The translations under genes were made by a program, and so were the position numbers. Source: an uncultured Bacteroidales bacterium (GTDB taxonomy: Bacteria; Bacteroidota; Bacteroidia; Bacteroidales; P3). Taken from it: a stretch of 24,000 bases of DNA. Positions 9,256 through 22,316 of this stretch are shown one piece after another. The stretch covers positions 63,540-87,539 of the forward strand of contig ONBK01000009.1 in assembly GCA_900316055.1 (NCBI GenBank). Reading direction: 5' to 3'. The notes beneath the pieces are model-generated. The model was not told the origin of the DNA and searched no databases. It saw only the letters and a program-made list of their open reading frames with translations. Numbering within the stretch: position 1 is the first letter of the stretch; each line of letters starts with the position of its first letter.

Positions 9256-9289
9256 AAAAAAGGGAACCTTGCCATCACAAGATTCCCTT
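9256..9289 (-). terminator. Strong intrinsic terminator
   Basis: The minus RNA AAGGGAAUCUUG-UGAUGG-CAAGGUUCCCUU forms a 12-bp stem (one G:U) followed by a U-run. It overlaps the stop codon at 9275-9277. Confidence 0.75.
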
Positions 9290-9368
9290 CTTTCCGAGTT
9301 TCACCACGATGATGAGTACAATTCCCGCCACCAGAATCCAGAAGATCCATTTCAGTGTAAGGAGGAGG

Positions 9369-9421
9369 GTTGAGGGCCGAGGGTTGAGGGAACTCTTCAC
9401 TCTTAACTCTTCACTCTTAAC
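9369..9421. repeat. Tandem word array GTTGAGGG-type followed by CTCTTCA/CTCTTAA x4
   Basis: Read directly: GTTGAGGGCCGAGGGTTGAGGG, then CTCTTCACTCTTAACTCTTCACTCTTAAC. GUUGAGGG can pair with CUCUUAAC only with G:U pairs, and only on the + strand. Confidence 0.85.
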
Positions 9422-9498
9422 TAGAATGCTGTCGCGCACAGCGACGTATACAGTGTCCGTCCTCTCCACAATCTTCACCTCCGCCGCCACCCGAGAAT

Positions 9499-9530
9499 CC
9501 TGAAACTTGGAACTTGAAACCTGGAACTTC
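9499..9530. repeat. Tandem word array (GAAACTTG / GAACTTG type)
   Basis: CCTGAAACTTGGAACTTGAAACCTGGAACTTC read directly. Confidence 0.8.
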
Positions 9531-9573
9531 GTCCTGTCCGTCACCCGTTCCACTTTCAGCGTATCCCCTTCCT

Positions 9574-9600
9574 GTAAGCAGTAAGCAGTAAGCGGTAAGC
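9574..9600. repeat. GTAAGCA heptamer x4
   Basis: GTAAGCAGTAAGCAGTAAGCGGTAAGC read directly. Confidence 0.9.
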
Positions 9601-9767
9601 CAGTCACCGTCTCCGTCACCACCTCGTGTTCTGCCAGATTTTCGTTCAGATTCTGGGAGATTTGACCTTCGGTCTTCCTCCTCCTTGCAAGGCATAGCCC
9701 AAGCGAGCTTGGTCTCTGCTCTTGCTTCGTTCGTCGGTTCTTCGCGTAGCGAATCCCTTGTCTCCCC

Positions 9768-9802
9768 AACCTTGAACTCTTGAATTTTGAACCTTGAACT
9801 CT
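9768..9802. repeat. Tandem word array (CTTGAAC type)
   Basis: AACCTTGAACTCTTGAATTTTGAACCTTGAACTCT read directly. Confidence 0.85.
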
Positions 9803-10020
9803 CAGCGGTCTTCCGCTGAACGCTGCAGCTCACCAATAACAGGGCAAGTGTCCCTGTGAGGGCAATCGCTAACACGCTCAATCGCATAGCGCAGCTCTGC
9901 CACCTCGTTCCGGAGCTCCCCCACCTCCCGCTGCGAGAGCTTGCTGTAGAGTTCGGGCTGCAGCACATACGCCCACGGGCCGATAAGGGCCGATGGGACC
10001 GATGCCGAAGGCAGTTTCGC

Positions 10021-11239: not shown

Positions 11240-11470
11240 CTACTTGTATTGATTCTTCCTCTTATACCTCTCCTCTAACGCAAGAAGCTCATTGAACCAT
11301 TTTAGGCGTTGTTCTTCCAGCGCATTAGCGTTCATGAGCTTCTTTTGTTGCTTGACCCAATTTCTTAGTCCGCGTTCAGAATCAACGTATTTAGAAGGAT
11401 TCCGCTTATTGGCCTCAATAAACTTAATCACCTCATTATATCTTGTCAACCAACGAGTTTCTTGATCCAT
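11240..11470 (-). CDS. Helicase-associated (HA) domain mini-protein, 76 aa (copy 1)
   Basis: RWLTRYNEVIKFIEANKRNPSKYVDSERGLRNWVKQQKKL....L..QRLKWFNELL fits the single HA-domain pattern (W..y..l..F.......P.......L..W...Q.......L...R...f..L). It is a paralog of 22083-22316. Confidence 0.6.
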   Translation of the reverse strand: MDQETRWLTRYNEVIKFIEANKRNPSKYVDSERGLRNWVKQQKKLMNANALEEQRLKWFNELLALEERYKRKNQYK

Positions 11471-11500
11471 AATTCCGTAAATCCGTAAATTCGTGATTCC

Positions 11501-11518
11501 TGCGTAGCCCGCTACGCA
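11501..11518 (-). terminator. Hairpin overlapping the four-helix-bundle gene stop
   Basis: TGCGTAG-CCCG-CTACGCA: a 7-bp perfect stem that contains the TAG stop (11512-11514). No U-tract. Confidence 0.3.
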
Positions 11519-11907
11519 TTAAGGCGCTTCTTAACCTTGGCAGTGATTGTTATCAGGATTTTATTTATCCGTGAACAATCACTAAGAAGCGACTCAGCTT
11601 GAACAGTTGATAGGTATCCGTTATCCCGGAGCAGCGAGAGCCAATTCTCGCTCTCCCTGGCTTCCTTCAGTGCAATACTGGTCTTACTCAAAAAGTCGGC
11701 ATCGCTTTGTGGATGTTGCGCCTCATTCATATTGGCATTGATGCTTGTAGCAGACCTCAACAACTGCCTACCCAACGCATCGACGATATCTCTATCCGCC
11801 TTACTCAGCTTCCCCTCGTTCAGATATTTATATAGCCTTATAATCCTACAAGAGAAATCATAGCTAAACTCCAGCACTTGCGCCTCCTTCTTCTCAGCCT
11901 CTGTCAT
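11512..11907 (-). CDS. Four-helix-bundle protein (23S rRNA intervening-sequence protein / S23p family, Avd-like fold)
   Basis: LGRQLLRSATSINANMNEAQHPQSDADFLSKTSIALKEARESENWLSLLRDNGYLS matches the family core (Q..RSa.SI.aNiaEg....s..dF...l.iA..Ea.Et.yWL.ll). I place the start at Met39 (11907). The 38 upstream codons of the listed ORF (to 12021) translate the octamer array and look spurious. Confidence 0.75.
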   Translation of the reverse strand: MTEAEKKEAQVLEFSYDFSCRIIRLYKYLNEGKLSKADRDIVDALGRQLLRSATSINANMNEAQHPQSDADFLSKTSIALKEARESENWLSLLRDNGYLSTVQAESLLSDCSRINKILITITAKVKKRLNA

Positions 11908-11944
11908 AAGAGGGCGCAATTCACCTTCAAATTTGCGCACCTCT

Positions 11945-12287
11945 GAATCCACGGATTTACGGAAGTTCGGATTTCCGGACTTCTGTTTCCTGTTGTATGT
12001 TTTAGTTTTTTTCTCTTCCATTGTTCGTAGATTCGTAAATCCTTAAATCCAAAAGTCCACGCACTGCGTGTTCCGCCATTCCGTGGCAACGCCACATGTT
12101 CCGTGTTTCCGTAGATCCGTGGTTCCATTAATCCACGCTCCGCGTGTCCGTGATTCCATATCTCCGTAGTTCCGTATCTCCATAGATTCGCACGTCCGCG
12201 CTCCGCGCCTCCGTGATTCCGTGAATTCCTGGATCCGTAATTCCAGCGAAGCTATGTTCCGTAGATTCGTGATTCCTGCGAAGCATG
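11945..12287 (-). repeat. Degenerate octamer array, GGAnnnAC on the minus strand (GTnnnTCC on +)
   Basis: Hand parse of 12022-12287 gives about 28 consecutive units, for example GTAGATTC GTAAATCC TTAAATCC AAAAGTCC ... GTGATTCC ATATCTCC GTAGTTCC GTATCTCC ... GTGATTCC GTGAATTCC TGGATCC GTAATTCC. An inverted sub-block lies at 11945-11990, and the same words occur at 11471-11500. Confidence 0.85.
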
Positions 12288-12289
12288 TT

Positions 12290-12310
12290 CCAACGCTCGT
12301 CTTGCGTCAT
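12290..12310 (-). pseudogene. 5' remnant of a third HA mini-gene
   Basis: The minus strand reads ATGACGCAAGACGAGCGTTGG (MTQDERW). It matches the first 21 nt of the HA gene at 22316 (ATGACGCAAGAAGAGCGGTGG) at 19/21 positions, then runs into the octamer array. Confidence 0.45.
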
Positions 12311-12337: not shown

Positions 12338-15300
12338 TCACGCATCAAGCCACTCCTCCTGAAGTGCATTCAAGTTCACTTCAAAAGGAAGGTGATGTCT
12401 GATAACAAACAATGTGTGGTTAGCTTGATTATCCTTCCCTTCATATTCGTCAATTATCTTCATGCCCTTACTCGCAAGGAACGAATAATTCACAAATTCT
12501 TCAGGTTTAGTAAGAATACGAGACCTCCAGAATGATGCTATAAACTCATTAATTACAGTTTTCACCTCACTGCCTATCACCTTAACCAAATCGCTTTCAA
12601 GTCTTACAATAACAGCCATGATATACTTGAATGCCTGATAAGAATCCACATTGATTGTTGTAATAAGGTAAGCGAATATGTATACTGGATAGTATCTATT
12701 CATATCCAGTTTATTTACCTCGTCAATATAAGTCTTATTATACTCTTTTCTTTCCAAAACGGCAATCACCTCTTTAACAACTTCGTCGTGTATGACAGGC
12801 TGATAACTGCGCAGAATGTCACGTATCTTTTCCAGCCCGCTTCTATCGCCTGTGATAGCCATCTTCAGAGCCAGGAAAAGCACCGGTGTCATCACATACT
12901 CAATAAATTCAGAGTCCGCACTCTCCCGTTTCATCTCTGGATGCGTCTCAAATGTCTTTGTCTGAGACAAAGTGGAAATGTCTGCTATCTGCGCCACCGC
13001 ATCAAAGTCCTGTTCTTTCAGGAACACAGGCACCAAAAGAGTCACAATAAAATGGATCTCCATTGTTTCACCCCGTCTTTTGATGGCTTCCAGCACTCTA
13101 TATGCCCAATCTGTTTTCATCTTTTCCATCTTTAATGCATCACATATCTGGTACATCAGGTAGCTAGATGTAAAGATTCTATCCTCTGAATAAAGATTAT
13201 CCAAGGCCTGCGCATCCTGTTCCGTAAACATGCCACGGTACGACTTCGCCTGCCCATCTGGAACCTCTCTCACACCTAATTCACCAAGATAGTTTACCAT
13301 CAACCAATCGCAAAGGCAAAGATATGTCTTGGCAAAGGGCGATTTCAATCCTTCTTCACTTGTCACATACTTGACACACTCAGAGATCACGTCAACTGAC
13401 CTAACTCTATCGCCAGCATCCCAATACATTAGTGATAATTCGCCCAAACATTGGTAATACTCATATATTGTACTTGAATGCCCGGGCTTTTGGACATAGT
13501 CAATAACCTTCTTCAACTGAGCGATACCTTCATTCATATCCGTCTCGCTCATCACATACGCCTTTATCTGGCCCAAATGAAGATGAATATTGGGTATCAC
13601 CTCACCATACTCTGCCGTCTGCAAGGCTTCGATATATGGCAATGTTTCTTTATTCTCTACTTCATTATTCGAATAGATTGAGTATGCCATCGAGCCATTT
13701 AACAGCACTTTCGCCAAAGGATATTTTTCAAACTGAATATAATAGTTGCCATAAACTCTTCTAGTATCCTCGTACCGTCCTGCTTTATTGAATGTCTCCA
13801 TCATCTCAAACAGGGCAGAGATCGCCATTTCCGGACATCTATACTCAATTGATTTATCCAATATATGCTGTAAACCCGCTATGATATCCCCCTGTTCCCA
13901 ACTTTTCCACTCTCTATTCACTAACTGGTATCCTGCCAAGTAGCAATGCTCACATATATCACTGTCCGAGTGGTTATACTCAAAAGGTTTAGCTGCAAAA
14001 TCTTTCAGCCAGGTCTCAAACTCTTCTATCTTTGTGAAGCGGAGTGGCAAAAACCAGATGCTCTTTTTGTACAGTTCATCCATCTCGTCCAGTTCATCCA
14101 CGCCCTTGCTATTCTTATTACGTTTTTCGATAGACAGGTTGTGATATTTCAAGCCAGCTTGAATTCTGTCCTCCGACCAACACAAAACGCTCAGCACACT
14201 ATAATAGGCAGCAGTCAGTTCACTTTCCGCCGCGCCCTCAATTATCCTGCAAAGATCATTCAGTATGTAATTTCTCTTGCTAGAAGACAGATTCTTCAGT
14301 ATCGTTAGTTGCTGAACTCTGACAGCAATCCGCAAATTCTCGGTCATCAGAATTGGCAGTTGGACATCCACCCACATAGAAGGAAGAATAGTCAGTTTGG
14401 GCAAATCTTCTTTCCTGATTTTCTCCAAAGCCCGCATATACATCAGTCCTGCTTCATCATACCGTTCTGCATTCTGCGCATAGAGTATGTAGTGAAGCAC
14501 ATCCAATTCATTAAGGGGCCCAGTCTTAATCATTATTCTGGATGCCAATAGCCAGTTACAACTCCTATAGCATTCATTATCCATATCAGGAGTCCATGCC
14601 TTATCATAAAGAGGTGTCACTTTATAGAGTCCGCTTTCTTCCGTCACCCACCCTGGTGTCAGAGACAGCAGCTTACTCCTTGGTTCCGCAATCTGCGGAC
14701 TGACCGAAGCCAAAGCCTTCACATCATCCTCTGAAAAGACTGTTTTCACCAGCATCAGACGGTTCAGCAGACTTCTGGTATCAGAATCAGGAATCATCCT
14801 TTGCATCAACTCTGCCAACGAGCGAGAGAGTTTATGATCAAAAGAATAGTTCAGCATCTGTCCAAACACCTTCTCATCCATCACCCAGTTACAGGAAGAA
14901 AGATATGTACATAGTGCTCTTGCCAATACTGGATGTCCGTAACTGTGTGCCCAAATAAACTTGCTGAAGTCTTGTCTTGGCGAATAGGTCTCTATCAGTT
15001 CCTTGGTTTCTACTTCTGTCAACAACGGGACTTCCACCTGTGCCACACGGCTCATATCCACCAAAGTCATATTCTCATCTATAGGAGCGTCTGTAGTGAC
15101 GACGGGCTTTTTTCCTTCTTGTAATTCTTGATAACAGAGCCGTATTACTTCATTGAGATGACCTGATGGCACATCCGTACAAACAAAACCATCTTTGACA
15201 TTGCTGAGCACCAGCTCTGACAAAGTTCGTTTCCCTGTTTTCACACTCCCGAACAACACAAGCACCTTTCCTTCGTTACAATGCTGAACACATTGCTGCA

Positions 15301-22082: not shown

Positions 22083-22316
22083 CTACTTGTATTGGTTTTT
22101 ATGCTTGTACTGTTCGATTTGTTCTATTAATCTCTTAAACGATTCTATACGCTCAGACTTCAATCGCCCGGCAGTATACAACTTTCTATTATGCTTAAGC
22201 CAGTTGAAGAAACGGCCCCTTTCTTCATCATTATGTTTAGACGGATTCCGCTTGTTAGTCTCTATGAAGTTCTTCACCTCATTATATTTCTCTAGCCACC
22301 GCTCTTCTTGCGTCAT
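22083..22316 (-). CDS. Helicase-associated (HA) domain mini-protein, 77 aa (copy 2)
   Basis: ERWLEKYNEVKNFIETNKRNPSKHNDEERGRFFNWLKHNRKLYTAGRLKSERIESFKRLIE. Both intact copies end in KNQYK. It lies 28 nt upstream of drt3a. Confidence 0.6.
   Translation of the reverse strand: MTQEERWLEKYNEVKNFIETNKRNPSKHNDEERGRFFNWLKHNRKLYTAGRLKSERIESFKRLIEQIEQYKHKNQYK

Follow-up and report, generated by a model that had tools for sequence, protein, structure and literature searches.

An octamer array in a Bacteroidales defence island is the upstream arm of a portable four-helix-bundle mini-gene cassette

In Coxiella, an intervening sequence (IVS) of the 23S rRNA gene carries an S23p open reading frame (ORF) with two to three tandem GACAGAT heptamers just upstream, and its 28-bp terminal stem is cut by RNase III (PMC4990558). 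S23p of Xanthomonas is a homopentameric toroid (PMC4990558), and the family of these proteins, PF05635, resembles the Avd protein of diversity-generating retroelements (DGRs; PMC10053308). Short tandem arrays are also known from intergenic DNA. Arrays of the heptamer TAACTGA occur in Beggiatoaceae, cyanobacteria and Bacteroidetes upstream of start codons, and post-transcriptional roles have been proposed for them (PMC4679880); arrays of the heptamer GGGAATC occur in Xanthomonas and Nostoc, whose GGGNATC repeats form quadruplexes in vitro (both as outlined in PMC4692102). Here we analyse an array of degenerate octamers in a 24,000-nt stretch of DNA from an uncultured Bacteroidales bacterium (GenBank assembly GCA_900316055.1, contig ONBK01000009.1, positions 63,540 to 87,539), referred to as the window; its genome is G000 and the window is C12:63540-87539 in our numbering. 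The array is the upstream arm of a portable cassette whose only cargo is a four-helix-bundle (4HB) mini-gene of family PF05635. To our knowledge, neither the role of the S23p / 23S-IVS 4HB protein nor the abundance of 7-9-nt repeats in some genomes has an accepted explanation, and the locus ties these two puzzles together in a testable form.

The cassette sits in a putative mRNA leader, with a STAND-like defence gene on one side and a mini-gene with a helicase-associated (HA) domain on the other, within a defence island. All features are on the minus strand unless stated otherwise, and positions are those of the window. The 5' arm (12022-12289) consists of about 30 GGAnnnAC units. It opens with the word AACATGCTTCGCAGG (12275-12289), which holds a GCTTCGC-type mini-hairpin and recurs elsewhere, and it is punctuated by small GC hairpins at 12245-12253, 12198-12208, 12134-12146, 12083-12095 and 12058-12070. 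The 4HB gene follows at 11512-12021 and encodes 169 aa. A hairpin read from the sequence, GCGTAG-CGGG-CTACGC (11502-11517), lies over its stop codon, with no T-run in the sequence behind it. The 3' arm (11471-11508) shares its octamer words with the 5' arm and comprises a short octamer run (11471-11500), which abuts the HA start codon, and the right copy (11482-11508) of a 27-bp direct repeat. The left copy of this repeat is part of the 5' arm (12258-12284).

An original prediction, made from the letters of the window alone, had described about 28 tandem octamers at 12022-12287, the same words at 11471-11500 and in an inverted patch, and the 27-bp direct repeat with 25 of 27 positions identical. 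All of these were confirmed. Against 300 dinucleotide shuffles, 12022-12287 had a lag-8 autocorrelation of 0.47 (z 7.8) and a z of 6.9 at lag 16, with harmonics at 16, 24 and 32; the lag-8 z was 4.6 in the short arm (11471-11510) and 3.7 in the inverted patch (11940-12021). When the minus strand was cut at GGA or CGAA, 270 nt yielded 30 tokens, 21 of them exactly 8 nt, four of 7 or 9 nt, and four long ones that each held a small GC hairpin. Because the units are degenerate, Tandem Repeats Finder (TRF) detected the array in fragments only (periods 8, 16 and 32), and the strict pattern (ACGGAN3)x4 found no match in the window itself. In a logo of 134 exact octamers from 11 arrays, positions 7-8, which are independent of token cutting, were A (0.92) and C (0.76); positions 4-6 carried 0.3-0.4 bit, were G-poor and were free to vary. 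About 12% of units had GA in place of GG.

The similarity of adjacent units (5.19 of 8 positions) was no higher than that of non-adjacent units (5.48 of 8). Moreover, four independent metagenome assemblies agreed in every base of a 1.2-kb stretch that includes the array, and a fifth matched the window locus in gene layout (layout compared, DNA unaligned). The array is thus neither an assembly artefact nor a fast-changing tract, and the length difference between strains that had been considered was not seen among the four aligned assemblies. Together, the conserved positions 7-8, the adjacent units that are no closer to each other and the identical copies indicate a maintained periodic core and argue against recent slippage, so that the slippage-prone spacer among the earlier suggestions can be dropped. 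From its base pattern, the phased A-C-G-G-A core looks to be under selection.

Two other array types were considered and rejected. A phase-variable slipped-strand repeat is incompatible with the degenerate units and with the identity of the array in the four aligned assemblies. A CRISPR array would have repeats of 23-50 nt with unique spacers of similar length, whereas the units here are 8 nt long and abut without spacers, as had been pointed out before. A search of the whole window with all Rfam families at gathering threshold gave no match.

We compared the locus with twelve others from Bacteroidales of the rumen and gut whose 4HB proteins are 71-95% identical; one of the carriers, Xylanibacter ruminicola KHT3 (L011), is cultured. 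All twelve had the opening mini-hairpin, runs of GGAnnnAC, the gene and a short downstream arm, and ACGGAnnn arms were present in 13 of 13 clade members despite different contexts. The 13 upstream segments, which as cut comprise the array and some flanking and coding sequence, contained 207 tokens of exactly 8 nt. The interspersed units of the relatives consist of GGAA, a 4-5-bp GC stem and a three-base loop, and they recur in every copy. Mini-hairpins of the type GCGNAGC/GCTNCGC were not enriched as a general array boundary mark in G000 (0.9-fold); they are specific to ACGGAnnn arrays. The genes next to the cassette differed among the relatives (DegT-like, gmd, SOD, rfbB and DUF4143 ATPase, read from flanking translations), indicating that the unit is portable. 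These findings show that the array is inherited with the 4HB clade across species and genomic contexts. One protein clade always comes with one arm type, and the array, which no known feature had seemed to explain, is the arm of a PF05635 4HB cassette with a widely recurring layout.

The association between such genes and short arrays extends beyond this clade. G000 has 12 PF05635 matches, and all eight above the Pfam cut-off have short tandem arrays on both sides; each locus uses its own 7-9-nt unit, and in most of them the two sides are inverted relative to each other. Across the order, nearly all of 29 relatives with 43-50% identity were bracketed by 7-9-nt arrays; several of these use GAATTAC, a 7-nt cousin of GGAATTAC. 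Among 41 loci, the sharing of repeated flank words rose with protein identity (Mantel r 0.38, reached by 0 of 2000 permutations), from 4% of pairs below 35% identity to 49-63% of pairs above 60%.

Within G000, words of the ACGGAnnn family are confined to this locus, which fits horizontal arrival within the defence island. The same locus was absent from 40 relatives of the genus and order, where an HA fragment was the only match, and no close relative that would point to a phage-borne origin was found in viral contigs. Exact-protein look-ups for a cassette-free allele of the locus retrieved only contigs with the cassette.

Arrays of this kind could be neutral debris of slippage and unequal recombination in repeat-tolerant genomes, with no function of their own. 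G000 is rich in repeats, with 1372 short tandem arrays (TRF score of 40 or more) versus 52 in a block-shuffled control, and array length varies among the relatives (87-270 nt or more), with dead pieces of HA and 4HB starts inside the arrays. Debris would not, however, be expected to preserve the ACGGA core and its 8-nt phase in different genera when the three middle positions are variable, nor to carry hairpin punctuation in every copy. Adjacent units that are no more alike than distant ones are the opposite of a slippage signature, and the constant length in the four aligned assemblies, with the same gene layout in the fifth, also speaks against this explanation, which we regard as quite unlikely.

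Both sides of the cassette carry HA-gene sequence. Upstream, the STAND-like gene (1186 aa) ends with a stop codon at 12338. It is followed at 12290-12310 by a 21-nt remnant of an HA mini-gene start (codons 1-7, MTQDERW, identified by sequence match), which adjoins the array as had been noticed earlier. The remnant agrees with the HA start at 22316 in 19 of 21 positions and with that at 11470 in 14 of 21. Downstream, the HA mini-gene at 11240-11470 encodes 76 aa starting with MDQETRW; its PF03457 match (E 2.4e-5) falls below the curated cut-off. The 20-nt word beginning at 12289 has exact copies in L007 and in five metagenome loci, each directly behind an HA-start remnant. The five metagenome loci, retrieved from metagenome contigs with the initial 20 nt of the arm as query, are solo-arm forms, in which an HA-start remnant, the mini-hairpin word and 3-5 octamers lead into an intact 76-aa HA gene (MDQETRW). 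Their leader measures 50-64 nt in total, and none of the five has a PF05635 gene. The window and L007 represent the long (filled) form of this layout, and the 27-bp direct repeats are located exactly at the difference between the filled and solo forms.

An uninterrupted form was present in G000 itself. L007 and C24:124759 of G000 share an orthologous DegT-spacer-HA context. At C24:124759 the HA gene is uninterrupted and starts with MTQDERW; in L007 the sequence jumps into the arm after codon 7, and the HA body resumes at a new MDQDTRW start. The solo-arm and uninterrupted forms, which can be compared directly with the filled ones, indicate that the long array and the 4HB gene together are an insertion or deletion bounded by array repeats. 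An HA gene starting with MDQ(D/E)TRW directly follows the arm in L007, L008, L009, L014 and all five solo loci, and the 5' stretch behind this start is near-identical among the window, L007, L009 and L014. On the upstream side, the junction of ...CGTTGG with AACATGCTTCGCAGG was also found in L007 and L083, and in L079, L080, L081 and L084 the cassette begins in the same way behind ...AGATGG, preceded at each locus by a distinct variant of the remnant; the identical arm start is joined to five different remnant variants.

In L014 (approximately 900-1500), two truncated 5' ends of other 4HB alleles (MEEN... and MAEYKKTDKKESTNPRKYGDT...) lie within the array upstream of the intact 4HB gene. Such fragments, the solo and filled forms and the remnant variants show that the arms are recombination sites, with gain or loss of the 4HB gene taking place between their repeats, in line with the recombination scars that had been proposed among other possibilities. 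We conclude that the array changes by unit-scale and module-scale recombination, not by rapid slippage. The cassette sits inside the short octamer leader of an HA mini-gene subclass, and the two sides of this leader are the remnant and the intact HA gene. The HA remnant bordering the DRT3/STAND block marks one side of a repeat-element insertion and not necessarily the scar of a defence-block insertion. Insertion of a repeat element into one HA leader can account for the remnant (12290-12310) and the intact HA gene next to the STAND-like gene (11240-11470), so the reading of the HA genes, with that at 22083-22316, as scars that bracket DRT3/STAND needs re-examination.

The remnant is also the beginning of a reading frame. 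In the window it opens a 60-codon ORF that extends into the array, and in four of the five solo loci it opens a conserved 21-codon upstream ORF (MTQDERWNMLRRNHGTTDLRN). Because the first seven codons of the latter differ only synonymously between loci, the upstream ORF may be functional rather than a dead scar and, to judge from its codons, could encode a leader peptide. The MTQDERWNMLRRNHGTTDLRN upstream ORF (window 12290-12310; L079, L080, L083 and L084) ends 5 to 19 nt before the HA start.

The 169-aa product of the cassette gene matched PF05635 (23S_rRNA_IVP; E 8.8e-21) and, by sequence, the structure 2RLD (E 3.3e-22). Its AlphaFold model had a predicted local distance difference test (pLDDT) score of 83.7, with four long helices over residues 49-168 and a pLDDT below 50 for residues 1-25. 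In Foldseek comparisons, target-normalised template modelling (TM) scores were 0.87-0.90 for 2RLD (BT_0352) and 0.86 for 2GSC (Xanthomonas Xcc0516), and Avd of the Bordetella phage BPP-1 DGR (4DWL) was matched with a TM score of 0.75 and probability 1.00. The N-terminal tail (residues 1-38) is encoded at 11908-12021 by words derived from the array; it has predicted disorder, and its sequence is hypervariable across the homologues.

In all relatives the ORF begins within the array region, with octamers translated into its first 30-50 residues. Immediately ahead of the core, a block R-x-F-x-G-x-L-K-P-L-M-T-E retains its residues while the codons change synonymously, which shows that translation begins upstream of it. 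The 3' part of the array is thus translated as a disordered N-terminal tail. The tails of 120 database homologues were basic, of low complexity, array-derived and very variable (21-111 aa). A tail length that changes only in steps of three units (8 aa) was not supported, as nearly every length from 30 to 53 aa was seen among these homologues. A long-form paralogue with 54% identity at C24:96613-96978 of G000 (L043 686-1197) has the octamer TGAACCnn instead, immediately behind the stop codon as well as in the part that codes for the tail, in direct orientation. The array-encoded tail suggests that protein and repeat co-evolve.

The Bacteroidetes -7 promoter motif (TAnnTTTG) was not found on the minus strand between 13317 and 9106, which points to read-through from the STAND-like gene as the most probable origin of transcripts; the region would then be transcribed together with that gene. 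As RNA, the array alone was predicted to fold weakly (z -2.1) and to be mostly single-stranded with mini-hairpins. In the minimum-free-energy fold of a 901-nt transcript, octamer words in inverted orientation within the tail-coding region (11979-11945) form the 5' half of a stem with the 3' arm, which encloses the 4HB core, and a second hairpin encloses the ATG at 12021. The duplex of patch and 3' arm in the window had a free energy of -46.3 kcal/mol (z -4.3 versus shuffles). The outer arms of the window are direct, and the stem depends entirely on the inverted patch within the ORF. The genome also encodes RNase III.

The regular GG runs, spaced 6 nt apart, might instead act as a structural element by forming two-tetrad G-quadruplexes, as proposed for the GGGAATC heptamers. 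Four consecutive units do fit a loose G2-N6 pattern, judging by the sequence, and the quadruplexes formed in vitro by GGGNATC repeats, as outlined in PMC4692102, provide a precedent. Here, however, the tracts are only GG, about one unit in eight has GA, and the loops are long. Furthermore, other 4HB arms of G000 (AGTAGTTA, AAGGTGA and AACGTTT) are unable to form quadruplexes, so the idea cannot explain the class, and we give it hardly any weight for this array.

Taking the locus as a whole, we lean towards a portable cassette arm that serves as a cis platform and mediates recombination through its repeats as the best explanation. The array RNA, with mostly single-stranded A-C-G-G-A motifs at a fixed 8-nt phase, would be a putative cis-acting platform, recognised by the cassette's own toroidal 4HB protein, a relative of a nucleic-acid-binding accessory factor of DGRs. 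The repeated arms would supply the homology for gain of the gene (filled form) or its loss (solo-arm form). In the lineage of the window, the stem of inverted patch and 3' arm that encloses the gene may in addition be an RNase III substrate, as in rRNA intervening sequences. A protein- or RNA-binding array, one of the options in the original prediction, appears more plausible now, given the pattern of conserved positions 7-8 and free positions 4-6.

Several observations weigh against parts of this explanation. Host relatedness and base composition both confound the Mantel correlation of flank words with protein identity, and the solo form may be the ancestral state as well as a derived one. 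The readable flanking genes include no recombinase or reverse transcriptase that would travel with the cassette. The enclosing duplex was weaker in L005 and L006 than in the window, and there was no enclosing stem in L007-L012 and L014, where the arms are direct and the pairing between 5' and 3' arms was weaker than in shuffles (z +1.2 to +2.1). We therefore rejected the enclosing stem as a conserved feature of the subfamily; strong in the window and absent in most relatives, the IVS-like stem is a lineage feature. Finally, the genome G170, from another genus of the same family, had 24 matches to a strict pattern of four phased ACGGA motifs at eight loci or more, often close behind a stop codon, and its single PF05635 gene lies away from these arrays. 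The notion that the arrays always neighbour 4HB or HA mini-genes accordingly stood for the subfamily (13 of 13 members) and failed in G170, where octamer arrays can exist and persist without a neighbouring 4HB gene. The arrays of G170 may be either spare arms or host elements.

Alternatively, the array could be a host-level RNA element unrelated to the 4HB gene, that is, an untranslated-region or leader platform of periodic A-C-G-G-A for a host RNA-binding protein or for control of translation or stability, into which a 4HB gene landed. Members of the Bacteroidetes phylum do not use Shine-Dalgarno-led initiation. Many G170 arrays without a nearby 4HB gene would fit such an element, including those of L031, L040 and L041. 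In these three loci, paralogous genes with a glycine-rich ...GGGGFEG tail are followed 4 nt past the stop codon by an ACGGAnnn array of 56, 136 and 256 nt, respectively, behind which one and the same terminator-like hairpin recurs. Solo arms are found ahead of intact HA genes, and in a rough count the orientation was sense to the flanking genes at approximately 8 loci and antisense at 2 to 4. The post-transcriptional roles proposed for TAACTGA arrays upstream of start codons (PMC4679880) point in the same direction.

On the other side, the word family is confined in G000 to one horizontally acquired locus, which makes a dedicated host factor unlikely there. Both octamer orientations occur inside a single transcript in the window and in L013, there is no CsrA gene, and every member of the 4HB clade carries the array. 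We consider the host-level element unlikely. A GGA sponge of the CsrB/RsmZ type was rejected separately, as PF02599 (CsrA) gave no match in the 96% complete genome and matched in control genomes. Intergenic mosaics of G170 (L024, L027, L029, L038 and L039) combine the GTATAGAAA, GACTACGA, GACAAAAG and ACGGAnnn families, and their runs are often introduced by a GCTTCGC-type mini-hairpin.

The cassette reading that we prefer can be extended, speculatively, into a full mechanism. A pentameric 4HB protein would recognise its own arm with about one A-C-G-G-A per subunit in a TRAP-like wrap, to which the basic tail would contribute, and the resulting (ribo)nucleoprotein would copy or recombine the cassette into other arrays. 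On this view, PF05635 proteins would be the long-missing cause of both the abundant 7-9-nt tandem repeats in many bacterial genomes and the rRNA intervening sequences. We think it improbable that this extension holds as worded; the cultured carrier X. ruminicola KHT3 makes the locus accessible to experiment.

Other repeat elements in G000 resemble the cassette to varying degrees. The commonest period of its short tandem arrays was 7, followed by 8, 9 and 11, and many successive intergenic spacers share one unit, e.g. CTTTAAA. Approximately 30 hairpin elements without an ORF pair an octamer run of the TTGATTGC/TTGAATGC type with an inverted copy of itself, the two being separated by a short GC loop (for example C14:47041-47200, C19:16313-16472 and C26:267481-267616); they look like gene-less counterparts of 4HB cassettes. 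At C24:89383-89490, a 36-residue PF05635 fragment lies in a stretch rich in GAGCGGA-type repeats. The motif ETKLAWAMP is encoded just downstream of this fragment and also in an ORF at 9417-9968 of the window, which adjoins heptamer arrays at 9365-9600 (region 9275-9968). By these motifs and repeats, C24:89383-89490 and window 9275-9968 may belong to another decayed cassette family.

Among known systems, ORF-bearing 23S intervening sequences (Coxiella burnetii, Leptospira, Brucella and Xanthomonas-type) share with the cassette the PF05635 cargo and the short tandem repeats directly upstream of it. In the window, a predicted terminal-repeat stem of ~20-25 bp encloses the gene, as in these elements, and the genome has RNase III. 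Unlike them, the cassette lies outside an rRNA gene (no Rfam rRNA match in the window; flanking genes protein-coding), its upstream arm in the window is ~270 nt of degenerate octamers with hairpin punctuation that are partly translated, and most of its relatives have direct arms and no enclosing stem.

Like the 7-9-nt intergenic repeats, which include cyanobacterial short tandemly repeated repetitive (STRR) sequences, TAACTGA and GGGAATC, the octamers lie between co-oriented genes near start or stop codons, in a genome where short repeats are abundant throughout. The units of the window differ from the heptamers in being degenerate, with a 5-nt core and a free 3-nt spacer, and in having hairpins between runs. 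PMC4679880 gave no hit for the terms S23, 'intervening sequence' or 'four helix', an S23p-type gene is unmentioned in the abstract and outline of PMC4692102, and we found no description of a link between short tandem arrays and PF05635 genes in the literature searched.

The 4HB protein has the same fold as Avd of the Bordetella phage BPP-1 DGR (4DWL). The two 27-bp repeats of the window differ at two positions only, A/G and T/A, in contrast to the adenine-specific differences between the variable repeat (VR) and template repeat (TR) of a DGR. The avd gene of a DGR is flanked by VR and TR as two direct near-repeats. Neither a DGR-type reverse transcriptase nor a VR/TR pair accompanies the cassette, although no systematic TR/VR search was run; readable flanking genes of the relatives are not reverse transcriptases, and the nearest reverse transcriptases to the cassette, DRT3a/b, are ~6.7 kb away and part of a separate defence system.

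A core at fixed spacing with free spacers, in RNA predicted to be single-stranded with small hairpins, is reminiscent of the targets of TRAP (11 GAG/UAG triplets) and of the GGA arrays of CsrB/RsmZ; this likeness concerns a possible working mode and is not a family assignment. As in bacterial miniature inverted-repeat transposable elements (MITEs; Correia/NEMIS, Nezha and ERIC), gene-less solo arms coexist with gene-carrying forms at gene boundaries, and insertion of the cassette keeps the downstream gene intact by supplying a new start. The cassette differs from MITEs in that it carries a cargo other than a transposase and has tandem micro-repeats as arms instead of unique terminal inverted repeats; no regular target-site duplication is established for it. 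What the present locus contributes beyond these systems are octamers of degenerate sequence punctuated by hairpins, arms in direct orientation, a protein tail encoded by the array, and HA-leader sites in filled, solo and uninterrupted form.

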